From the NCBI GenBank assembly GCA_016935175.1, contig JAFGRK010000002.1:1-46563 (forward strand): DNA of 46,563 bases, written 5' to 3'. Below, piece by piece: positions 1,531 through 24,452 of this stretch (its first letter is position 1; the number at the start of each line of letters is the position of its first letter). The translations under genes were made by a program, and so were the position numbers. Origin of the DNA: Candidatus Woesearchaeota archaeon (GTDB lineage: Archaea; Nanobdellota; Nanobdellia; Woesearchaeales; SM23-78). The notes under the pieces were generated by a model that saw nothing but the letters and a program-made list of their open reading frames with translations, had not been told where the DNA came from and ran no database searches.

Positions 1531-3132
1531 TCACTTAGATTTTTTGCGCCTGCGGCGGGCCTTATCATCATTCTTAGGCTTAGCTTTTTGCATTTTCTTC
1601 TCTTTTTTTATGTACTTCAGCTTCCTCTCGTACTTTTCCTCGCCAGTAATCCTGTCAACAAAGTCCTCTATGGGCTCGAATATTGACCTGAAAGTCTTCT
1701 TGGCAGGGGCAGCTATGAACTCAATGTCCTTGTCAAGCTCTTTCTCAACACTGGCTAATATGTTATTAGTCTTGTTAAAGACTATGTCCACTGGCTTGAG
1801 CACTGCTAGCTCAAGGAAAAGCCCTCTCTGCCTTATGCTCTTGTTGATCTTGACCTCTTTTATCCTGGAGACAAAGATAACAGCTACTAGCAGCCTGGCT
1901 ATGAATGAAAGCAGGAAGAGGAATAGTATTATGTGCACGCCAGCAATGGCCAGTCCAGAAGGCATATGCTTGGCAAGGAACGAGCCGATCAATCCGCCTG
2001 CAAGTATCCCGACTCCCCAGAAGGCATTGAAGTAGGCAAAGCTCTTAGCCCTTTTCTGGGGCTCCACAGTCTCAAGCATGTAATTAAAAGAGGTGAGCTC
2101 AAACCCTCCCCAGCCAAACCCGCTGATAGCCTCTGACAAAATGATGAAGAAAAATATGTCAGGCTTGCCTTCGAACAGGATTCCTGAGAAGAACCATGCC
2201 AAGGGCACAAGGCATATCAGGAAGATGGAGATGTACATGATATTCCTTGTGCCGAACTTCACAGAATGCTTACCCCAGTACTGGATGGTGAAGAACTTGA
2301 TGACCATCGGCACCAGCACTACGGCTGTGTATTGCAGGTAGGTGAAGTCAAGGTTCTTGAGCATGTAAACTGCAAAGAAAGGCGCAGCTATCATTATGGC
2401 AACTGAGAACAATGAGCGGAAGAGCATGAAGTTGCCGAAATTAGTTCCGGGAGCTGACTTGATGAACTGCTTAAGGCTCAAGGCTTTCCTCTCATCAACC
2501 ACATAGCTCGGCTCATAGTGCTTCTGCAATGAGAAGAATGACACCATCCTTCCTATGAAAGCCACTAGGAAGAGCAGGCCAAAGCCTAGCCAGATGTTCC
2601 TGTCAGTGAAATAATTCAGAATGATGCCTCCTAGCAGTATGGAGATTGAAAGCACAACGATTATAACCTTGCTCCTCAGCCCGAAGTACTTAGCCCTCTC
2701 ATGCTCCTCCACAACATCCCCTATCCATGAGCTCCATGCGACTCCTGCTATGTTGCCAAAGACCAGGTAGAGCGAGAAGATTATTATCAGTAGCATTATG
2801 TTGTGGGTTATCAGTGGCAGCAGGAACAAAGGCAGCAATGAGAACGCCTGCAGAAGCACTGCTATCGAAGTGATTTTTTTCCTGTTCTTGTAGCGGTCAG
2901 TCAGGCTTGCGCCTATTATCTGCGAGAATGAAGCTATGAAAGCAGGAACTGATGATAGTATGCCTACTTCTGAGCTGGTAGCCCCTAATCTTATTGCAAA
3001 AGGAGGCACGTACTGCTCGCCAAAGCCGTACATCACATTATAGCCAGAGCCATCGAGAATAGAGGCTTTCTTGGTCTTCCTTGCCTGCTCATGGGTGAGC
3101 TTGTCAGGCTTGATGAGCTTAATCTTTTTCAT
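1531..3132 (-). CDS. MFS-type transporter with Lys/Arg-rich C-terminal tail
   Basis: 533 aa with about 12 hydrophobic helices in MFS-like organisation. The long basic C-terminus (KKEKKMQKAKPKNDDKARRRRKKSK) is unusual. Confidence 0.75.
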   Translation of the reverse strand: MKKIKLIKPDKLTHEQARKTKKASILDGSGYNVMYGFGEQYVPPFAIRLGATSSEVGILSSVPAFIASFSQIIGASLTDRYKNRKKITSIAVLLQAFSLLPLFLLPLITHNIMLLIIIFSLYLVFGNIAGVAWSSWIGDVVEEHERAKYFGLRSKVIIVVLSISILLGGIILNYFTDRNIWLGFGLLFLVAFIGRMVSFFSLQKHYEPSYVVDERKALSLKQFIKSAPGTNFGNFMLFRSLFSVAIMIAAPFFAVYMLKNLDFTYLQYTAVVLVPMVIKFFTIQYWGKHSVKFGTRNIMYISIFLICLVPLAWFFSGILFEGKPDIFFFIILSEAISGFGWGGFELTSFNYMLETVEPQKRAKSFAYFNAFWGVGILAGGLIGSFLAKHMPSGLAIAGVHIILFLFLLSFIARLLVAVIFVSRIKEVKINKSIRQRGLFLELAVLKPVDIVFNKTNNILASVEKELDKDIEFIAAPAKKTFRSIFEPIEDFVDRITGEEKYERKLKYIKKEKKMQKAKPKNDDKARRRRKKSK

Positions 3133-3206
3133 GACAGCCCAGAAACCATTAGGTTGAGTTTAAAAATCTTTCTTATAAAAAAGAAGCCATTATTCTAAAA
3201 AAAGGA

Positions 3207-3677
3207 TTACTTTAGCAGCGCATCCTGGTTCCACCACCTTTCAAAGCCTTCAAAGCTTGTGAAGATGCGATCTGAGTGGTATCTCAGCCACGGTCGATCA
3301 TGGTCTCCGTTGGTTATGATTGAGAGCACTTCCTTCTGAAAAAGCTTTTTTGCATAGACAATCTCCATTATGGTCCCTTGGCTGCTAGAGCCGTCTATAA
3401 CCGCAATCACTCCTTTTCTTACCTTGCTGATGGCGTAAAGGTCCCTTTCAACTATGATTGCAGGCTCCCTTTCTCCTCTTTTTTCTTTTCCTGAGTCAAT
3501 CAGGGCCACATCATCCCTTATTATATCATAGAATGGGTTGACTAGCTTGATACCTGCTCTTTGCTCAAACCCAAGCTCCCATTCCCTTATCTTCTCCCTT
3601 GAAAGGAATGGGTGTGCCAGGTAGTAATCGCCTTCAATCTTTATGTGCGAAAAATCAATTTTTGATTCTAGCCCCAT
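3207..3677 (-). CDS. Nucleoside 2-deoxyribosyltransferase-like (Rossmann-like) protein, tentative
   Basis: 156 aa. The N-terminal DYYLAHPF...W.LG......G..LVNP pattern resembles the PF05014-like family. This is pattern recognition only. Confidence 0.35.
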   Translation of the reverse strand: MGLESKIDFSHIKIEGDYYLAHPFLSREKIREWELGFEQRAGIKLVNPFYDIIRDDVALIDSGKEKRGEREPAIIVERDLYAISKVRKGVIAVIDGSSSQGTIMEIVYAKKLFQKEVLSIITNGDHDRPWLRYHSDRIFTSFEGFERWWNQDALLK

Positions 3678-3683
3678 TTTTTT

Positions 3684-4742
3684 TCACCCTTTTTCAAGCC
3701 AGTCCAGCCCTGGCTCAGAATAATCTATCCTCTTGTCTTTTAGCTCAGGCAGGACTTCAAAAGCGCCGAAATGCTCGATATCCTCTAGAGAGTTTTTTTT
3801 GGATATGAACTGGCGAGTGCCAAAATAAGTTACTTCCTTGTCTGTGAGCAAGGTTATGAAAAGCACAGGGTCAAAGCCATTGTACTTGCTGACGAACTCA
3901 GAGTCTGTCTTGATGAACTGGTATAGGTCTGTGAGAGCTGTCTCGTGCACGTGCGCTTGGATGCTAGGGTATACTTGGCTGTAGAGCATGCTTCTCAGCT
4001 CCTTGAAAGCCTCATGCTCAGGCCCTTCTGAAAAAGCTATCATGCCATCTTTTTTGCTCTGCTCAACCAAGGCCTTGACACAAGCTTCTCTCCTGTCATT
4101 GGTCTTCTTCCCAAGGTATTTCTCAATCTTCTCTGCCAGGCCAAAAGCTTCCTGGCTTTTTGGGAAGTAGCCAACCCTGTAAGAGGCATCGCTGTAATCC
4201 CCTAAGGTGTAAGATATCTTGTCAGCCAGCATGACTGCAGTGTATTCTGCTGGCTTGGAATAGTCAATTGCTAAGTCTTTTTTTCCTCTTGCGTGGAGGA
4301 GCATGCCTTCAAGAGTCTCGTAGCTCAGGTTAAGCCCTTTGCCTCTGTTCTCTATCTCTTGGGCTACTACTGGGCCGAATACTGAATGATGAAATGGCTT
4401 TTTGCCGATTTTAGCAAGCACTTTCTCCCCTAGGTGGCCGTATGGCGCGTGGCCTATGTCGTGGCCTGCTGCTATTGCCATGCAAAGCTCTGTGTTAAGC
4501 CCGAGAAGCTCGCTTATCTTCATCGAGGTGCTTATTACTTCGTCTGTATGGACTTTTCTTGTCCTTATGTGGGAATGTTCTGGAAGCGAGAATGCCTGGG
4601 TCTTGTCAGCAAGCCGACGGTATGCCTTGGTCTCGATAATCCTCTGGAAGTCTGTCATGTAAGGCTTTCTTGAGGCTACTGGGTTATCAGCGGTCTTTCT
4701 GCCTTTAGAACCCTTGTTGTCAAAAGCCTTGATCAAATTCAT
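3684..4742 (-). CDS. HD-domain dGTP triphosphohydrolase-like protein
   Basis: 352 aa. RTRKVHTDEV..AAGHDIGHAPYGH matches the Dgt-like HD phosphohydrolase signature. Confidence 0.7.
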   Translation of the reverse strand: MNLIKAFDNKGSKGRKTADNPVASRKPYMTDFQRIIETKAYRRLADKTQAFSLPEHSHIRTRKVHTDEVISTSMKISELLGLNTELCMAIAAGHDIGHAPYGHLGEKVLAKIGKKPFHHSVFGPVVAQEIENRGKGLNLSYETLEGMLLHARGKKDLAIDYSKPAEYTAVMLADKISYTLGDYSDASYRVGYFPKSQEAFGLAEKIEKYLGKKTNDRREACVKALVEQSKKDGMIAFSEGPEHEAFKELRSMLYSQVYPSIQAHVHETALTDLYQFIKTDSEFVSKYNGFDPVLFITLLTDKEVTYFGTRQFISKKNSLEDIEHFGAFEVLPELKDKRIDYSEPGLDWLEKG

Positions 4743-4843: not shown

Positions 4844-5893
4844 CTAGCTAGAAATCGCCTTCAGGACCTTGTAATAGTTCTCCAATGCTTGCTCTGAAGT
4901 TGTCTCGTGGTTAGAATGATAACCTGTGGTTGGTACTTGGACTGTTGCTCCGTTCAATGCTCCGCGAGTCTCCTCCACAATCCTCCCGAGTTCAGTGATC
5001 CCAAGCTTTTTTGGCTTTGCGCCGCTTTCAGCTAACTTCCTGTTCTGAGTCTCAATGAACTCGTCTTTAAGCTCATACTTAATCCCTTCCCTATCACAAG
5101 TATTTTTCAGCTCTTGCACAATAACAGGATTGAACACTCCGTGCTGGTCCTTGTTCCTTAGCACTATCAATCCCTTCGAGATTGCCCTGTCATCATCATA
5201 AGGCGTGGTGTCAATGCTTATCAGGCTTTTAGATGATATTTCTTGCGATGTCAAATAGTCAACAAGGTGCTTCCAGCTCCTTCCTATTTCTTCTTCTGTC
5301 GCAAATAAAAATGTGCCGTCAAAGCCATCTTTCGCAAGCTGCCTTGCCACTGCTGCGCTTATTGCATTGTCTATCTGTGAAGAAACTCTTCCATTTTCTT
5401 GTGATAACTGCGAAAAGTAAGCAATTGGCGTGCCTGGAGCAAGCTTGCCCATGCCTTCTATTTCAAAATATAATCTTGCAGCAACCTGGTCTATTGAAAG
5501 GCCTTTGACTTTTCCTTCTGCAATTGTGTTGCCTGCAATGCCGTATGCAAACACAGGCTCACCAATGAAGCGCTCTCCTAGCTTTGTTAAGAACTTCTCA
5601 GAATGCTTCTCTTGCTCGCCATAGAATCTTTCTGCGTTAAAGGCTGCATACTCAAAATTCCCATTCTCATCGGCCACTATGCCGTGGCGGTCAATGTGTG
5701 CGGTTATTATCTTGTCGCTTGCAAGGCCTTTCTTCCTTACTGTTAGGATCCTGTCGTGCTTTTCCACTTCATAGCCCGGGATATTGAAATCATCTGCAAG
5801 ATAATCGAGAAATGGCTGCTCAAACCTGATTACAGCAGGCACATTCAAGTATTCATTTGTCTTTGACAATATGTTTTGTAAATCTTCCCCCAT
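4844..5893 (-). CDS. M42-family metallo-aminopeptidase-like protein (FrvX/TET-like)
   Basis: 349 aa. ITAHIDRHGIV resembles the M42 H-x-D metal site, FATEEEIG resembles the catalytic EE(V/I)G motif, and there is a C-terminal GYHS..E motif. Confidence 0.55.
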   Translation of the reverse strand: MGEDLQNILSKTNEYLNVPAVIRFEQPFLDYLADDFNIPGYEVEKHDRILTVRKKGLASDKIITAHIDRHGIVADENGNFEYAAFNAERFYGEQEKHSEKFLTKLGERFIGEPVFAYGIAGNTIAEGKVKGLSIDQVAARLYFEIEGMGKLAPGTPIAYFSQLSQENGRVSSQIDNAISAAVARQLAKDGFDGTFLFATEEEIGRSWKHLVDYLTSQEISSKSLISIDTTPYDDDRAISKGLIVLRNKDQHGVFNPVIVQELKNTCDREGIKYELKDEFIETQNRKLAESGAKPKKLGITELGRIVEETRGALNGATVQVPTTGYHSNHETTSEQALENYYKVLKAISS

Positions 5894-6007
5894 GGAGCCT
5901 ATTGGAGGCTTTCTCCTTTATAAATCTTTCGGTTTTTTAACCACTTAGAAGTGACAAATATACTAAAATCCACATTATCACAGTATATATAGTGTCATAT
6001 TATAGTG

Positions 6008-10213: not shown

Positions 10214-12949
10214 CTATGACTTTACCACGAACTTGCTTAGCTCCATAAGCACAAATCCAGTGCTGGCCATGCCAAGTATCAGCACCCAGTCAAGCAATAG
10301 CAAGGGCACTGTCCCGAATATAGCCTGGAAAGGCTTAAGGTAAATCACTATGAGCTGGATGGCTATTGACAATGACACTCCCCCTAGCAGCCATGGGTTG
10401 GAGAAAGGGTTGAGGTGCTTGATGGAGTGGTGAAGGGTCCTGCTGCTCATCACAGCAAACATCTGGAACATCACCAGCGTGGTGAAAGCCACTGTCTGGG
10501 CTTTGGCTAAATCAGTGCTCCTGTACATGTTGAACAACAGCAGAGTGCCTAATCCCATTATCAGGCCAAAAAAGATTATGGACATGAAGAGCTGCTTGGT
10601 TATAGGGTTTTCTTTGGGGTTCCTGGGCTTTCTTTTCATGATGTTCTCCTCGCTTGACTCAAAGCCCAGCCCTAGCGCAGGGAAATTATCAGTGAGCAGG
10701 TTCATCATCAATATCTGGAGGGGCAGCATAGGCAATGGAAGCCCTATCATTATAGCGACAAACACAGAGGTTATCTCCCCTGAGTTGCATGACAGGAAGA
10801 ACTTCACTGACTTTATCATCTTGTCATAGATGTTTCTCCCTTCCTCTATGGCGTTGACTATGCTGGCAAAATTATCATCCTCAAGAACTGCCTTGGAAAC
10901 TTCCTTGGCAACATCTGTGCCTGTGATGCCCATGGCTATGCCTATGTCTGCCTTTTTCAAAGCAGGAGCGTCATTAACCCCGTCTCCAGTCATGGCAACC
11001 ACATGCCCTTTCTTTTGCAGGGCTTCCACAATCCTGAGCTTCTGTATCGGCATAGCCCTGGCTATTATCCTTATGCCCTCGACTTTCTCCTGGAGCTCAT
11101 CATCGCTCATGTTCTCGACTTCATCACCTGTGAGGACTATGTCTCCCTCGCTGAAAAGCCCTATCTGCTGGGCAACAGCCTTGGTGGTTATGGGGTGGTC
11201 TCCTGTTATCACCATCACCTTGATGCCTGCTTCATAGCAGCGCGCAATAGCATCCTTGACTTCATCCCTTGGAGGGTCAATCATGCCTACTAATCCTACG
11301 AAAACAAGGTCTTTCTCAATGTTTGCAATAGTGCACTTGCCAGGCTTGATACCCTTAGGCACTTTCCTGTAAGCCAAAGCCAGCACTCTCAAGGCTTGGG
11401 CTGCAAAAGAATTATTCATGCTCATGATGAGCTGGCGGTCTTTCTTGGTCAAAGCCCTTACCTTGCCCTTGTCAAGGATTGACTTGCAGGCTTTCAGCAA
11501 GAGGTCAGGCGCTCCCTTGACATAAGCTTCCCTTTGCTTTGTACCCTTATCAAAGTATACTGTGCTCATCCTTTTCCTGTCAGAGTCAAAAGGCAATTCA
11601 CATTCTTGCGAGCAAGAGCTGAGCAGCTCCTCTTCCTTTAACCCTCCTTTTTCACCTAGAACGACCAGCGAGCCTTCAGTCGGGTCCCCTATGATTTCAA
11701 AATTTCCGTCTTTCTTTACCAGCTTGGCATTGTTGCACAAGTAGCCTATGCGCAATAGGAGGCTCAGTTGCTTAGGGTAAATCTTATCATTGTTGCCCTG
11801 ATCCTCATTATTACCCTGCTTACCATTCTTGCCCTTCTTATTTCTCTCCTTATAGAATTCACCTACAGGAGTATAGCCAGAGCCAGTGACGCTGATGATG
11901 GAATTATTAGTGAATATCCTGGTGACTGTCATCTGGTTCTTGGTCAAGGTCCCTGTCTTGTCAGTGCAGATGAAAGTGGCAGCCCCAAGGCTTTCAGCGG
12001 CAGGCAGCTTCTTAACCAGCATGTTTTTCTTGGCCAGCCTGTTGGCGCCCATGGAAAGGCTTACAGTCACTACTAATGGCAGGGAGTTAGGGATGGTCGA
12101 AACAGTGAGAGCAAGGGCGAATAAGAGCATCTTCTCAACTGACAATATTCCCTGGATGAAGCCAGTGATGAACACTGCAGCCACCAGGAAGACTACTACT
12201 ATGCCTATCTGCTTTGCAAGCTTGGTGAACTTCTCCTGCAAAGGAGTCTTAACTTCAGAAGTTTCATGTAAAGAGGCAGCTATCTTGCCGAATTCAGTGC
12301 TAAGGCCTGTGCTTATCACCACGCACTTGCCCTTGCCATAAGTCACTGCTGTGCCTGCAAAAGCCATGTTCTCCTGGTCTGCGACAGAGACTGGCTTGCA
12401 GTAAGCCTCAACAACTTTTTTAGAAGGCAAAGACTCTCCTGTGAGCGAAGCCTCGTTTATCTCCAGGCTTGAGACTTCAATGATTCTCATGTCAGCAGGC
12501 ACATTATCCCCTGCCTCTATGATTACAATATCCCCTGGGACCAATTCCTTTGCAAGCACTACTTGTTCCTTGCCGTCACGTATGACTTTTGCATGGGGCG
12601 TTGAGAGCTTTTCTAAAGCCTCCATTGCCTTCTCAGCCCTGTACTCCTGGACGAACCCCAGTATTGCGTTGAGCAATAGGATTCCGAAGATGGCAATAGC
12701 CTCAACCCTTTCTCCCAGCACCAATGATATCATACCTGCTACGAACAGCAAGATTATCATAGTATCCTTGAACTGGTTAAGGAAAAGGATTACTGCAGTC
12801 AGCTTCTTAGACTTAGGAAGCTCGTTCTTGCCGTACTTTTCAAGCCTTGACTGGGCTTCAGGGGAGCTCAGGCCATTGGAAGCAGAGCTAGACAAGCCTT
12901 TTATAACCTCATCAGGAGAAATGCAATGATAGTTTTCCATGGCTACCAA
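10214..12949 (-). CDS. P-type cation-transporting ATPase, P2-type (SERCA/PMCA-like)
   Basis: 911 aa. Phosphorylation site CTDKTGTLT, hinge MTGDGVNDAPALKKADIGIAMG, and a TM6 NLLTDNFPALGLGFE motif are present. The TM4 motif is IPNSLP rather than canonical IPEGLP. A Lys/Asn/Gly-rich low-complexity insert lies in the cytoplasmic domain. Confidence 0.9.
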   Translation of the reverse strand: MVAMENYHCISPDEVIKGLSSSASNGLSSPEAQSRLEKYGKNELPKSKKLTAVILFLNQFKDTMIILLFVAGMISLVLGERVEAIAIFGILLLNAILGFVQEYRAEKAMEALEKLSTPHAKVIRDGKEQVVLAKELVPGDIVIIEAGDNVPADMRIIEVSSLEINEASLTGESLPSKKVVEAYCKPVSVADQENMAFAGTAVTYGKGKCVVISTGLSTEFGKIAASLHETSEVKTPLQEKFTKLAKQIGIVVVFLVAAVFITGFIQGILSVEKMLLFALALTVSTIPNSLPLVVTVSLSMGANRLAKKNMLVKKLPAAESLGAATFICTDKTGTLTKNQMTVTRIFTNNSIISVTGSGYTPVGEFYKERNKKGKNGKQGNNEDQGNNDKIYPKQLSLLLRIGYLCNNAKLVKKDGNFEIIGDPTEGSLVVLGEKGGLKEEELLSSCSQECELPFDSDRKRMSTVYFDKGTKQREAYVKGAPDLLLKACKSILDKGKVRALTKKDRQLIMSMNNSFAAQALRVLALAYRKVPKGIKPGKCTIANIEKDLVFVGLVGMIDPPRDEVKDAIARCYEAGIKVMVITGDHPITTKAVAQQIGLFSEGDIVLTGDEVENMSDDELQEKVEGIRIIARAMPIQKLRIVEALQKKGHVVAMTGDGVNDAPALKKADIGIAMGITGTDVAKEVSKAVLEDDNFASIVNAIEEGRNIYDKMIKSVKFFLSCNSGEITSVFVAIMIGLPLPMLPLQILMMNLLTDNFPALGLGFESSEENIMKRKPRNPKENPITKQLFMSIIFFGLIMGLGTLLLFNMYRSTDLAKAQTVAFTTLVMFQMFAVMSSRTLHHSIKHLNPFSNPWLLGGVSLSIAIQLIVIYLKPFQAIFGTVPLLLLDWVLILGMASTGFVLMELSKFVVKS

Positions 12950-13075: not shown

Positions 13076-13699
13076 TCACTCTACCTTGCATTCCTCAAGC
13101 CAGGGTTCCTTGTAGATTTCTTTAACCATCCTGTTGATGCTGTCACGTGAGCCTTCAATAAGGTATTTGATGGTTACCTTGCTGTTCTTCTTCTCTATGT
13201 GCACGCTTATCATCTTGTGGCTCTGGGTGTGGATGGCAAAAATGCTCTTGAGCTCCTTTTCCCCTATTACTTTGTTGGCTACCAGGGTCATCCTTCGCTG
13301 GTAAGAGCCTACCCCTGTCTTTTCCAGGCGCGCATCAAAGATGAGAATCGACCATATTAGCAGGTAGATTATTGCTGCAAGGAAGTATTCTCCCACGCCA
13401 ATAATCAGTCCTAGGCTTGCAAACAGCCAGATGCTTGCTGCGCTCACAGCGCCCATAAGCTTTTCTCCAGTCTTAATCAAGGCCCCTGCGCCTAGGAAAC
13501 CTATGCCTGTGATGATGGCTGCCATGAGATGGGGTGATTCCATGTCTGAAGCAACAATTGCCAGGCCGCATGCTCCTATAGCCACGAAGGTATACGTGCC
13601 AAATCCTAAGGGCTTATGCGCTTTCTGCCTTTGCATGCCAAAAGCAAATGACAGCGCAAAGGTTATTAGGATTTTCAGCAATACTACCAAAGCATTCAT
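13076..13699 (-). CDS. mgtC: MgtC/SapB-family membrane protein
   Basis: 207 aa. It has the MgtC N-terminal membrane domain (LKILITFALSFAFGMQRQ...) and a C-terminal soluble domain. It lies directly upstream of, and co-directional with, the P-type ATPase. Confidence 0.8.
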   Translation of the reverse strand: MNALVVLLKILITFALSFAFGMQRQKAHKPLGFGTYTFVAIGACGLAIVASDMESPHLMAAIITGIGFLGAGALIKTGEKLMGAVSAASIWLFASLGLIIGVGEYFLAAIIYLLIWSILIFDARLEKTGVGSYQRRMTLVANKVIGEKELKSIFAIHTQSHKMISVHIEKKNSKVTIKYLIEGSRDSINRMVKEIYKEPWLEECKVE

Positions 13700-13835
13700 G
13701 GGCTTGGCTATCTGTTTCCCTATATATATAGTTTTCGCACAAGCCTTTTGATAGCCTTGAGGCCATTAAGGTGAATATGCAGCATTCGCAAGCTATGCTT
13801 GCCCAGTCCCATGGTGTAAATCCTTCACTAAAAAC

Positions 13836-14013
13836 GGGTGCGTCCAGAATCTCCTACTCGCCAGTCCAAAACGCCACACTGAAGTGTGGCAACTTGTCCT
13901 GTCTCGCCTGGCCTGCCTTCATTATCATTCAGGCAATGAAGGCACAGACGTGTGTTAACTTGTTAACACGCTTAGAGGACAGCAGTCCTCTTACGCAGAT
14001 TCTGGACGCATCC
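13836..14013. mobile_element. MITE-like non-autonomous element: imperfect terminal inverted repeats plus 10-bp target-site duplication
   Basis: Left TIR is GGGTGCGTCCAGAATCTCC (13836-13854) and right TIR is GCAGATTCTGGACGCATCC (13995-14013), with 14 contiguous perfectly complementary bp. It is flanked by a direct repeat CACTAAAAAC at 13826-13835 and 14014-14023. It has no coding capacity. Confidence 0.55.
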
Positions 14014-14086
14014 ACTAAAAACAGTTACGTTTATATAGTCTAAGTGCCAATAATATATCATCAAAAGTAAAAAAGAGGGTTTTTGG

Positions 14087-16360
14087 GTGAATAATAAAGC
14101 CTCTGCCTTAGGGCTAGCCATAGTATTCTTCTTTTTTCTAGAGCTAACACTAGCATTTGCAGCCTGCACCACTGAAAATACCCCTCGAATTATATCTGCT
14201 GATTATTTTGAGCTGTATGAAGGCTTAACGTTTGTGAACGACTTTAATGTCAGCAACATGCTAGAGGAGAGCATCAATTATGCTTATGCATCAGTGGACC
14301 CTGGGTTGTCAGGCATAAGCATAGATAAACAAGGGGTGCTGAAGTTTACCCCTGCAGATTCTGAGACTGGCTTGCACAGGGTTGCTGTATTGGCTGTGAA
14401 GGATGATTGCTCAGACACCAGGATCATAACTTTCAGGATTTTTGACAGGCCTGACATAACCTCCTTTGACCCTGCTGATTCCTTTGTCCAGATAAGCCAG
14501 GCAGAGACCCTCCTGTTCAGGATAAGCGCAGTGGATAGGGATGAGAACGAAAGCCTGTCTTACCTATGGTTTGTCGGCTCAAAGCTCATCAATGATTCAA
14601 TTAATAAGACTACCATATTCTTCAATCCTGGATTTGATATATCAGGGACCCAGGAGCTAAGCGTGAATGTGACTGATTCCAAGGGCCTTATGAGAAAGAA
14701 GTCATGGAGCTTGCAAGTGTCCAAGGTCAACAGGCCCCCTGTGCTGATGTTCAACATCCCTAACTTCATGATTTTCTGGAATACTGCGTCAGGAGCCTAT
14801 AACCTGGCTGATTATTTCAAGGACCCAGAAGGAGGGTTGCTTAATTACTCCCATCGCCAAGTTATCCCTCAGTTTGAGGTCAAGGGATTGGCTTATGCCA
14901 ACGTCACTGTGAAGATAGACGGCACAAGCTTTGTCACTTATGACCCTATAATTAACACCAGCGGCTATACTTATTTTGTCTTCACAGCAACTGACATGCT
15001 AGGGTTAAGCACTGACAGCAACATTGTAAAGGTGGAAGTGGTTGGCAGCGACGATTTCCAGGACCTTGAAAGCGCTTCGCAAAAGGATTATTGCGGAGAC
15101 AAGATATGCAGCGTGCTTGAGGATTGCAAGAGCTGCCCTTATGATTGCGGTGAGTGCGAAGGGGAGCAGGAGACTGGCTGCAAGCCTGATTGGAACTGCA
15201 CAGAATGGGGTCCTTGCCAGCCTGCAGGCTTCCAGGTTAGGAATTGCACTGACAACAATGAGTGCGAGGATAACAGGAGCAAGCCTGATGAGATTAAGAG
15301 ATGCATCTATAATGCTACTTGCGATGATGGCTTGAAGAATGGGATTGAGGAAGGTGTTGATTGTGGCGGCCCATGCGGCCCTTGCCCTACCTGCCTTGAC
15401 GGGATTCAGAACCAGGGCGAGGAAGGTGTTGATTGCGGAGGGCCTTGCAGTGATGCATGCCCTTCATGCAATGACACCATCCTGAACCAGAACGAGTCTG
15501 ATGTTGATTGCGGGGGCTCTTGCCCTGGTTGCGCAGGAGGCAAGCTATGCCTGGGCTCCCATGATTGCGAAAGCCTGAAGTGCATCTCAGGATTATGCAC
15601 TTACCCTAGCTGCGATGACGAGGTAAAGAACCAGGGTGAGGAAGGCATTGATTGCGGAGGCCCTTGCACTAAGCTTTGCGGCAACTGTTCAGATGGGATG
15701 CAGAACCGTGGTGAGGAAGGTGTTGATTGTGGAGGAAGATGCCCTCCGTGCCCAAGATGTGATGATGGCATACTAAATGATAATGAGACTATGGTTGACT
15801 GCGGCGGCGTATGCAGGGAATGCGGCTTTGCTGACTATTTCAACAAGTACCGATTGCTGTTCATAGCTATTTTTGTAATATTAGGATTCATACCTTTGCT
15901 GCTGGTGACTTACTTCTTCTTCCTCCTGGCAAGCCTTGACAGGGCAAGAAAGCTTTATGAGAACAACACCGCCTTTGCATTCATCGTAGGCACTAACAGG
16001 TTCTTGCGCAAATTCAGGAGGATGAGAGGCAAAGGCCCTGCCTTGAATGAGTCTGCCATAAACACCTTCATAGGGGAGCTTATGTCCATGGCCAAGAGGC
16101 CTGACTTGACCAGTAAGCAGCTATATGACGAGATAGCCAAGATTTATTCTGCAGTGCTAGGCTTGTCAGAGGATTCTGACCAGCACTCATTCCAAGCCAA
16201 GATAAGAGGCTCAAGCCTACCCTTGTTACTGAAAGTCCTGTACGCAGGCTATTACAAGAAGGCAGATATACTAGCCATGGCTACTTATGTAGCCCCAGAG
16301 CAGAGAATTGACATGATAATGGAATTGCAGTTCCTGCTAAGCGAGGCTGCGAAGGGCTAG
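14087..16360 (+). CDS. Large secreted/membrane-anchored surface protein with Ig/cadherin-like N-terminal region and 6 tandem Cys-rich repeats; C-terminal TM anchor
   Basis: 757 aa with a GTG start. It has a signal peptide (ALGLAIVFFFFLELTLAFAAC), a repeat core C-x-D-G-x-x-N-x-x-EEGVDCGG-x-C-x-x-C occurring six times, and a TM helix (LLFIAIFVILGFIPLLLVTYFFFLL) followed by a cytoplasmic tail. Confidence 0.75.
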   Translation: MNNKASALGLAIVFFFFLELTLAFAACTTENTPRIISADYFELYEGLTFVNDFNVSNMLEESINYAYASVDPGLSGISIDKQGVLKFTPADSETGLHRVAVLAVKDDCSDTRIITFRIFDRPDITSFDPADSFVQISQAETLLFRISAVDRDENESLSYLWFVGSKLINDSINKTTIFFNPGFDISGTQELSVNVTDSKGLMRKKSWSLQVSKVNRPPVLMFNIPNFMIFWNTASGAYNLADYFKDPEGGLLNYSHRQVIPQFEVKGLAYANVTVKIDGTSFVTYDPIINTSGYTYFVFTATDMLGLSTDSNIVKVEVVGSDDFQDLESASQKDYCGDKICSVLEDCKSCPYDCGECEGEQETGCKPDWNCTEWGPCQPAGFQVRNCTDNNECEDNRSKPDEIKRCIYNATCDDGLKNGIEEGVDCGGPCGPCPTCLDGIQNQGEEGVDCGGPCSDACPSCNDTILNQNESDVDCGGSCPGCAGGKLCLGSHDCESLKCISGLCTYPSCDDEVKNQGEEGIDCGGPCTKLCGNCSDGMQNRGEEGVDCGGRCPPCPRCDDGILNDNETMVDCGGVCRECGFADYFNKYRLLFIAIFVILGFIPLLLVTYFFFLLASLDRARKLYENNTAFAFIVGTNRFLRKFRRMRGKGPALNESAINTFIGELMSMAKRPDLTSKQLYDEIAKIYSAVLGLSEDSDQHSFQAKIRGSSLPLLLKVLYAGYYKKADILAMATYVAPEQRIDMIMELQFLLSEAAKG

Positions 16361-22935: not shown

Positions 22936-23042
22936 GCATCCCACGCTAAACTTCCCCCTCATTTCTCAAAATAAAATTCGGGTTTAATCTCCTTTCCACA
23001 TCTTTCTTACATCGAAGAGCGATTCAGCATCCCTTCTTGCTG

Positions 23043-24452
23043 TTAGCTCTTCTTGGCCTGCTTGCCGTCATCCTTCTTGACTTCCGCGGCATCCTCTGCG
23101 TCAGGCAGCTTCTTGCCGAGGAAATCCGGAAGCTGCAGGCCGGCGACTTCCATGATGCTGGCCAGCGGAGGGATGGACTTCACGATGCCAGAGATGAACT
23201 TGGCCGTGATAGGGGTTCCGTCGCCGTTGCCTCCGCCCATGTTGTCCCAGACAACGATCTTGCCGAAGTCGATGTTCTTGATGGCGTCGGCGTTGATGGT
23301 AGCGAGCTCCTTCATCTGCTCGATGATGAGCATGGTGGCAGCGGCCTTGGGATCTCCCCCGACAGAATCAACCAGCTTCTTGAAGCCCTCTGCCTTCTTC
23401 TCGAGGATGGCGAGGATGCCCTGGGCCTGGCCTTCCATCTCGCGCTGAACCTTGAGACCCTGCCCCATGCCTTCCTGCTCCAGGCGGATCTTCTCAGCCT
23501 CAGCTTCGTTCCTGATTTTCTCCTTCTGGAGCTCAGCAGGGACAACGATATTGATGGACTCAGAGACCTTTTCCCTTTCCCTACGCGCAGCCTCAGCTTT
23601 TTGCTCGGCCACATAAGCTTCTTCCAAGGCCTTGGCAGCGTTGACCTTCTCGGCGCTCACAGCCAGCTTGTCGGCCTCAGCCACCTTTTCCCGGCGCTCA
23701 GCATTGGACTGCGCGATCTTGACCTTGGACTTGTTCTCGCCCTCGACGGCCGTGGCATCGGCAGAAGCGACGTTGATGCGCTCAATCTTCTTGGCATCAG
23801 CCTGCCCTGTGGCGCCGTCTCTCTCCTTCTCGGCGACGTCGACGCGTGCCTGCTGGATTGCGTTAGCAGCAGCTTTCTTGCCCAGGGCCTCAATGTACCC
23901 GCTTTCGTCCGTGATGTCCTTGATGTTGACGTTGATGAGCTTCAGGCCCAGCTTCTTCAGCTCGTTCTCAACGTTGTCCTGGACTTTCTTCTCGAAAATC
24001 TCGCGATCGGTGTTGATCTCCTCGATGTCCATCGTGGCCACTGTGGTCCTGAGCTGGCCGTAGATGATCTCCTCGGCATTCTTTTCGATCTCCGGCCTCT
24101 TCATGCTCAGGAGGCGGGATGCAGCCAACTGCATTATCTCAGGCTCAGTGGAGATGGCAATCGTGAACCTGGAAGGCACATTGATGCGGATATTCTGCTT
24201 GGAGAGCGCGTTCTTCAGGTCGATATCGATGGTCATGGGTGTGAGATCCAGGAAGCCATAGTCCTGAATCATAGGCCAGATGAACTTGGCTCCTCCGTGC
24301 TGGCACTTGCCGGCTTGCTTGCCACCGATCTTTCCCCAGACGACCAGGATCTTGTCAGAAGGGCACCTCTTGTATCGCGCCATGGCGACCAGGAAGGTGA
24401 CGAAAGCCATGACTACAAGAGCTGCGACCAGATACAACCAAGATAAGCTCAT
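23043..24452 (-). CDS. Flotillin (SPFH/Band-7 domain, FloT/YqiK-like)
   Basis: 469 aa. It has an N-terminal TM, an SPFH domain, then a long Ala/Glu/Lys-rich coiled coil (EAEKIRLEQEG, AEQKAEAARREREK). Confidence 0.9.
   Translation of the reverse strand: MSLSWLYLVAALVVMAFVTFLVAMARYKRCPSDKILVVWGKIGGKQAGKCQHGGAKFIWPMIQDYGFLDLTPMTIDIDLKNALSKQNIRINVPSRFTIAISTEPEIMQLAASRLLSMKRPEIEKNAEEIIYGQLRTTVATMDIEEINTDREIFEKKVQDNVENELKKLGLKLINVNIKDITDESGYIEALGKKAAANAIQQARVDVAEKERDGATGQADAKKIERINVASADATAVEGENKSKVKIAQSNAERREKVAEADKLAVSAEKVNAAKALEEAYVAEQKAEAARREREKVSESINIVVPAELQKEKIRNEAEAEKIRLEQEGMGQGLKVQREMEGQAQGILAILEKKAEGFKKLVDSVGGDPKAAATMLIIEQMKELATINADAIKNIDFGKIVVWDNMGGGNGDGTPITAKFISGIVKSIPPLASIMEVAGLQLPDFLGKKLPDAEDAAEVKKDDGKQAKKS

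Follow-up and report, generated by a model that had tools for sequence, protein, structure and literature searches.

A 178-bp intergenic element of a Woesearchaeota archaeon is very probably a miniature inverted-repeat transposable element with the ends of an IS5-type insertion sequence

[quoted passage not shown] Short transposon-derived repeats such as Correia (NEMIS), ERIC/IRU and RUP fold into stable hairpins, and when co-transcribed with their neighbours they have been shown experimentally to alter mRNA processing, mRNA stability or the promoter activity of the adjacent gene. Given that the genomes of small-celled archaea such as Woesearchaeota are highly reduced, active families of insertion sequences (ISs) and MITEs in these organisms are of some interest for genome plasticity. 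In a census of 8220 archaeal genomes, a Woesearchaea genome was among those with the highest MITE densities, with 105 MITEs per Mb (PMC11602168). As to insertion sequences that make long target-site duplications, elements of the IS903 group are about 1050 bp long and generate a 9-bp duplication (PMC3281130, table 2).

The element described here was found in a 46.5-kb stretch of DNA (referred to below as the window) from a Candidatus Woesearchaeota MAG. It occupies positions 13836-14013 and lies within a 387-bp divergent intergenic region, between mgtC (13076-13699, - strand; Pfam MgtC) and the gene of a 757-aa cysteine-rich surface protein (14087-16360, + strand; Big_9 domain, GTG start at 14087); a P-type ATPase and a TrmB-family regulator are encoded further away. 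We conclude with high confidence that 13836-14013 is a non-autonomous MITE, probably mobilised in trans by a DDE transposase of the IS5 type. The element is small, carries no transposase gene, has terminal inverted repeats and a target duplication, shares its ends with an IS, and is present or absent between relatives. A sequence-only reading of the window had proposed a MITE insertion with a target-site duplication, and this proposal is supported by a matching autonomous IS, a sibling MITE family and empty orthologous sites.

A repeat scan of the region placed the left terminal inverted repeat, GGGTGCGTCCAGAATCT, at 13836-13852 (+ strand) and the right one, AGATTCTGGACGCATCC, at 13997-14013 (- strand), with a non-coding interior of 144 bp (13853-13996) between them. 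The arms are 17 nt each and are complementary at 16/17 positions (94%). The lone non-Watson-Crick position is a G.T on the + strand, and the reverse complement of the right arm, GGATGCGTCCAGAATCT, accordingly differs from the left arm at one position. Arms of 19 nt with a 14-bp perfect core, TGCGTCCAGAATCT, had been reported before, which is correct as read from the sequence; the repeat scan gives arms of 17 nt. When the 17-mer was searched in the window with up to 3 mismatches, it was found at two places only, namely the two arms, against 0.10 matches expected, and none of 100 shuffles gave two matches.

The element is bracketed by the direct repeat CACTAAAAAC, which occurs in the window only at 13826-13835 and 14013-14022 (0.06 occurrences expected). 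Position C14013 is common to the right arm and the right copy of this repeat. With full-length arms, the unambiguous target-site duplication is therefore the 9-bp ACTAAAAAC, at 13827-13835 and 14014-14022; with an element of 177 bp that ends at 14012, it becomes 10 bp. The size of the element is thus given as 177-178 bp. A 10-bp direct repeat had been read at 13826-13835 and 14014-14023: the left copy is as described, the right copy was placed one position too far, and the length of 10 bp holds only with C14013 counted, being 9 bp otherwise. The identity of the two copies of the duplication, together with the 16/17 match of the arms, suggests a fairly recent insertion.

The element had also been said to be without coding capacity. 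A 90-aa ORF (13771-14043, + strand) does read through and spans the whole element, but it is without homologues, was not called as a gene in an independent Logan assembly, and is missing at the empty orthologous site.

To find ISs with the same ends, the pattern GGRTGCGTCCAGAATCT was scanned against one genome each from 185,579 species (596 Gb). The scan returned 116 loci, close in number to the 139 or so that chance would give for a 17-mer in which one position is two-fold. Nearly all of the 116 loci were lone unpaired matches in unrelated bacteria, and paired arms were found only in DPANN loci. In the archaeal MAG JAZDMG010000007 (locus L018), two perfect inward-facing 17-mers delimit an element of 907 bp (1150-2056). 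Each end reads GGGTGCGTCCAGAATCT, identical at 17/17 positions to the left arm in the window, and CGGTCCAAA(G) flanks the element on both sides as a 9/10-bp duplication. The single ORF of this IS matches Pfam DDE_Tnp_1 (PF01609) at 3.7e-20, and its best NCBIfam model is the equivalog for the IS5 family transposase (NF033579, 1.5e-40), with a score of 139.5 bits, marginally below the curated cut-off of 140, and far ahead of the IS4, IS982 and IS1182 models. The search for an IS with the same terminal repeats, which the sequence-only reading had advised, thus led to the IS of L018, which encodes a DDE transposase and whose 17-nt ends are identical. The statement that no transposase is present in the window was also upheld, since a tblastn search of the 46.5 kb with the matching transposase found nothing below E = 0.76.

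The L018 transposase was aligned with nine homologues. D101, D173 and E229 were invariant; of the Y-2-R-3-E-6-K signature, which typifies transposases of the IS4/IS5 type, Y222, R225 and E229 were invariant and K236 was at least 90% conserved. At E <= 1e-10 the transposase had 639 homologues, most of them 272-290 aa long and mostly on contigs of about 1 kb, and some were labelled as IS5 family transposase of a Candidatus Woesearchaeota archaeon. With a single ORF, a DDE_Tnp_1 domain, the DDE triad, the YREK signature and short ends that begin with GG, the partner IS most probably belongs to the IS5 family.

Further copies of the partner IS were compared for their ends and flanks. A second complete copy (L243) is 908 bp long, has the ends GGGTGCGTTGAAAATCT and is flanked by a perfect 10-bp duplication, GCTCGGGTTA, and a 903-bp copy (L241) has the ends GGGCGCGTTCAAAATCT and no clear duplication; the lengths of the partner IS thus range from 903 to 908 bp. 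In these distant copies (77-80% protein identity) the ends are related but distinct, whereas closer copies (86-87% identity) retain GGGTG(C/T)GTCCAGAATCT, as seen in L251. Comparison of the closer with the distant ends assigns the arms in the window to the L018-like clade in particular. The same IS terminus is found at the end of two JGI metagenome contigs, L130 and L198. The duplication is absent from L241, L251 and L252, the last two of which lie on metagenome contigs of about 1.3 kb whose flanks may be chimeric. The duplication of the window element agrees in length with that of the partner IS family (9-10 bp).

In this IS group, the transposase ORF lacks a stop codon within the element: it continues across the terminal repeat (ATT CTG GAC GCA CCC = ILDAP) and terminates in the flank, 6-108 nt outside the element (L018 1042-1974, - strand; L241 3001-3831; L243 143-985; L251 568-1398; L252 352-1185). 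The C-terminal tail of the protein therefore differs by insertion site, and the IS end is also under coding constraint. The full copy in L241, at 2923-3825 of a contig of the Woesearchaeota MAG GCA_016930415.1, is separated by 54 bp from the P-type cation ATPase gene (227-2869) upstream of it; the resemblance of this neighbourhood to that of the MITE in the window is probably a coincidence.

Six of the 116 loci with this end sequence lie on six different contigs of the MAG Candidatus Woesearchaeota Zod_Metabat.1039 (JAFGBP01), where the sequence bounds a family of 123-bp elements. Four of these are complete (L020 2152-2274, L067 3683-3805, L095 6885-7007 and L110 622-744), and truncated or variant copies are present in L049, L089 and at position 6510 of L110. 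The left ends in L020, L095 and L110 (622-744) are exactly the left arm of the window element. The L067 element has a 10-bp duplication, TATTAATTAT, the L110 element a 9/10-bp duplication, (C)AAAGCAGGC, and the L020 element none. Membership of the window element in this family was considered and rejected: although the first 20 nt agree fully, no convincing alignment of the interiors was obtained. A deletion derivative of the IS was rejected as well, since only the 17-bp ends (plus 1-3 nt) are held in common with L018, L130 and L198. The interior thus showed no similarity beyond the ends to either the partner IS or the 123-bp family. Given that the 178-bp and 123-bp elements have the same ends and unlike interiors, one type of transposase would have two or more short passengers that are unrelated to each other, as is usual for MITEs.

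Other copies of the 178-bp element were sought in several collections. No second copy was found in the 46.5-kb window, and none with exact ends and size in the 185,579 representative genomes, a set that does not include the source MAG. A six-frame concatenated translation of the element had no match among 5.8 billion proteins. Three scans of viral contigs with interior or paired-arm patterns returned nothing, a scan with a single arm returned three lone unpaired matches, and plasmid and phage searches gave no match to the element. In the Logan assembly of SRR13394437, contig L001 contains an identical 6.5-kb stretch including the element, which represents the same locus. This subfamily is so far known from a single copy.

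The orthologous locus was then compared in relatives. The closest MgtC homologues are 83%, 73% and 72% identical to that of the window. The gene order of surface protein, MgtC and P-type ATPase is the same in L245, L246 and L247, which are three assemblies with an identical intergenic sequence, and in L250; the identities to the window in L245-L247 and L250 are 69% and 66% for the surface protein and 83% and 72% for MgtC, and 46% for the P-type ATPase. The intergenic regions measure 276 bp in L245-L247 and 185 bp in L250, and they contain neither a copy of the arms nor the element. When 13836-14022 (the element plus one copy of the repeat) is removed from the window, the remaining sequence aligns with L245 unbroken across the junction, ...AGTCCCATGGTGTAAATCCTTCACTAAAAACAGTTACGTTTATATAGTC... 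in the window corresponding to ...AGTCCCATGAGGTAAATCCTGCA-AAAAAATAGTTACGTTTATATAGTC... in L245, and the empty site of L245 has a single related copy of the target, TGCAAAAAAAT. The sequence-only reading had held that a lack of empty-site alleles would speak against an insertion; two orthologous syntenic loci without the element were found, and these belong to different species (MgtC 83% and 72% identical), not to strains. An empty allele within the population would read ...TCCTTCACTAAAAAC joined directly to AGTTACG and, if it exists, would point to recent or ongoing mobility.

The interior contains four stems, all perfect or nearly perfect, at 13873-13890 (7 bp), 13914-13944 (10 bp), 13950-13971 (9 bp) and 13974-13991 (7 bp). 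Four stem-loops had been described earlier, and all of them are present, each within 1-2 nt of the coordinates first given. The predicted fold of the whole element consists of a 17-bp closing helix and a multi-branch junction, and it is far more stable than that of shuffled sequences (z = -8.4 for the + strand and -8.9 for the - strand). The interior alone (13853-13996) has a z of -4.55 and was beaten by just 1 of 200 shuffles. The sibling 123-bp elements fold well too (z = -3.1 to -6.7), indicating that strong folding is general in such palindromic elements and is no sign of function.

The interior also contains imperfect direct repeats, 13877-13897 with 13943-13963 (21 nt, 81%) and 13857-13867 with 13903-13913 (11 nt, 82%). 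Given these two repeats, part of the interior seems to be the product of an internal duplication of a hairpin-containing unit.

The strong fold, for which folding and an Rfam scan had been suggested at the outset, does not correspond to any known ncRNA family. Rfam 15 gave no match at the gathering score in the whole window and none at E <= 10 in 13650-14200, ARAGORN found no tRNA or tmRNA gene, and a known RNA family was rejected on these grounds. Because of the size of the element and its closing helix, a retron ncRNA, an IS110 bridge RNA and an IS605 omega RNA were considered as well. These were rejected since the adjacent genes, mgtC and that of the Big_9 surface protein, include none for a reverse transcriptase, a recombinase or a TnpB-like protein, and since the ends match those of a DDE IS.

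The position of the element relative to the promoters of the two neighbouring genes was examined. A putative TATA-like box of the surface-protein gene, GTTTATATAG, is at 14029-14038 (+ strand), about 50 nt upstream of the GTG start at 14087, and the element ends 7-16 bp upstream of this box. The block AGTTACGTTTATATAGTC, which directly follows the right copy of the direct repeat, is conserved in L245, whereas the part conserved in L250 is TTTATATA. From general knowledge of archaeal promoters, we take the block AGTTACGTTTATATAGTC to be a plausible BRE/TATA region. On the mgtC side, a putative TATA-like box, CTATATATATAG, is found at 13721-13732 (- strand), about 25-35 nt upstream of the mgtC start at 13699; its assignment is presumed on the same general grounds. 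This box is about 100 bp from the element, is uninterrupted, and is conserved in L245, L250 and L248. We infer that the insertion occurred just upstream of the putative core promoter of the surface-protein gene and left the promoter intact. It would have shifted the former upstream sequence 187 bp away, with the first 9-10 bp kept by the duplication. Inspection of the element by eye revealed neither a TATA-like box nor a run of five T or longer; it is therefore not expected to supply a promoter or an archaeal terminator. The sequence does not favour the earlier suggestions of a compact structured transcript of about 180 nt and of promoter or terminator effects.

Three other explanations were weighed against a plain MITE. 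The least probable of all is a chance origin of the inverted and direct repeats in AT-rich intergenic sequence. Apart from the frequency of short repeats between genes, nothing speaks in its favour. It is already refuted by the shuffles, none of which reproduced the two arm matches, by the expectation of 0.06 for the 10-mer in the window, by the probability of about 4e-6 for a 9-nt match at two fixed flanking positions, and by the recurrence of the same ends, paired, inverted and with duplications, in other archaeal genomes. A resident gene for a structured ncRNA, closed by the long terminal helix and with a direct repeat that is coincidental or serves as a processing signal, would account for the very stable fold, with its 17-bp closing helix, multi-branch junction and z of -8.4, and for a G+C content of 52% against about 40% in intergenic DNA. 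However, the closing helix is base for base the terminal repeat of a transposase-encoding IS, the flanks carry a 9-10-bp duplication, a length also found in that IS family, the element is missing from orthologous loci of relatives that are otherwise colinear to the base, and no Rfam family is matched. We regard such a gene as highly improbable, and the match to the IS ends together with the empty sites refutes it for practical purposes.

A third explanation accepts the MITE and adds a functional cargo, in which the hairpins act as a structured RNA or as palindromic binding sites for a protein, for example GTGTTAAC-TT-GTTAACAC, are spread by transposition, and modulate the surface-protein gene or mgtC. 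Several observations are consistent with it: the interior folds better than all but one of the 200 shuffles, the four stems of 7-10 bp are perfect or nearly so, the interior is unrelated to the parent IS, and 7-16 bp separate the insertion from the putative TATA box of the surface-protein gene. In addition, the one flaw in the terminal helix would be a G.U pair in an RNA of the + strand, where it is tolerable, and an A.C mismatch in one of the - strand. Against these stand the lack of an Rfam match at E <= 10 and of a second copy for covariation, the absence of a TATA-like box or a T-run of five or more inside the element and of a convergent gene that reads into it, the comparable folding of the sibling 123-bp MITEs, and the fact that related species manage without the element. 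We therefore consider a functional cargo distinctly unlikely. Its wider form, in which the interior would be a portable module (a structured small RNA or a group of palindromic sites resembling operators) scattered near promoters by IS5-type transposases of Woesearchaeota and would rewire the regulation of the surface-protein gene, is at least as doubtful. The extra structure of the interior (z = -4.55) is left unaccounted for by the plain MITE explanation.

For the preferred explanation, a MITE mobilised in trans, the following mechanism is proposed. The only functional parts of the element would be its two 17-bp ends, at which a DDE transposase binds and cuts. This transposase would be encoded elsewhere in the genome, or by a former resident of it, on an IS5-family IS of about 905 bp that circulates among Woesearchaeota and their DPANN relatives. 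Such an L018-type transposase would bind both ends in trans, excise the element from a donor site and join it to a target cut with a stagger of 9-10 bp, the repair of which would leave the flanking (C)ACTAAAAAC duplication. The landing site would have been the divergent intergenic region between mgtC and the cysteine-rich surface-protein gene. Mobilisation in trans, the cut-and-paste mechanism and the neutrality of the hairpin-rich interior are all inferred.

Compared with other prokaryotic MITEs that resemble an IS in their terminal repeats alone, the window element is likewise small, non-coding and intergenic; its terminal repeats are those of an autonomous IS, its duplication is as long as the one which that IS makes, and its insertion is polymorphic between relatives. 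It differs in being known from one copy and in having an interior of four separate hairpins instead of one long palindrome. It resembles Correia (NEMIS), ERIC/IRU and RUP in being short, transposon-derived and folded into hairpins, but it has no internal promoter- or terminator-like sequence, its host is an archaeon, and it is known from sequence alone. The partner IS is similar to the IS903 group in making a long duplication of 9-10 bp, but at about 905 bp it is some 150 bp shorter, and the duplication is clearly 10 bp at the L243 IS and the L067 MITE. Among annotated elements on plasmids, the haloarchaeal ISHla2 and ISHxa2 come closest to it, with only about 28% identity. The element is thus newly catalogued, but it is an ordinary kind of genomic parasite, and nothing in the finding challenges current understanding.

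What is gained is a defined pair of MITE and IS in Woesearchaeota, with 17-bp ends GGGTGCGTCCAGAATCT, a 9-10-bp duplication and an IS5-type partner of about 905 bp. Since the mobile elements of Woesearchaeota are barely described, the value of this pair is mostly in annotation. As a probe, the 17-mer GGGTGCGTCCAGAATCT is useful for masking repeats, for accounting for contig breaks in DPANN MAGs and for following recent transposition among close populations.

Some further features of the locus and its relatives were noted. The P-type ATPase of the window (10214-12949) is 46% identical to those of L245 (6741-9479) and L250 (6639-9386), which is below the identity of the adjacent MgtC and of the surface protein. 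The low value suggests either a replacement of the ATPase gene or a comparison of different paralogues.

In the orthologous intergenic region of L245, a 31-bp mini-palindrome at 5873-5903 (reverse-complemented GGGTGCTCAGAAACTTTGTTTCTGACACACC) resembles two degenerate IS ends placed back to back, and its flanks are ATAGCCTTGA and AAAACCTTGA (8/10). At the matching place in the window (13755-13771) there is no palindrome, just the abutting similar motifs CCTTGAGG and CCATTAAGG. The mini-palindrome of L245 could be an independent old insertion, or the window could hold an excision footprint. In L250, the relative with 72% identity, the stretch that precedes the TATA box at the empty site (about 5680-5720) contains AAAACCATTATGT twice in tandem.

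The 757-aa surface protein (14087-16360) contains about six tandem cysteine-rich modules with the motif ...G(E/I)EEG(V/I)DCGG(P/R/S)C..., followed by a C-terminal transmembrane segment, and its sole Pfam match is a weak Big_9 over the N-terminal part. Elsewhere in the window, two ORFs of 469 aa overlap almost completely on opposite strands, at 23037-24446 (+ strand) and 23043-24452 (- strand); the one on the - strand has an SPFH/Band 7 domain, and the one on the + strand is presumably a shadow ORF.
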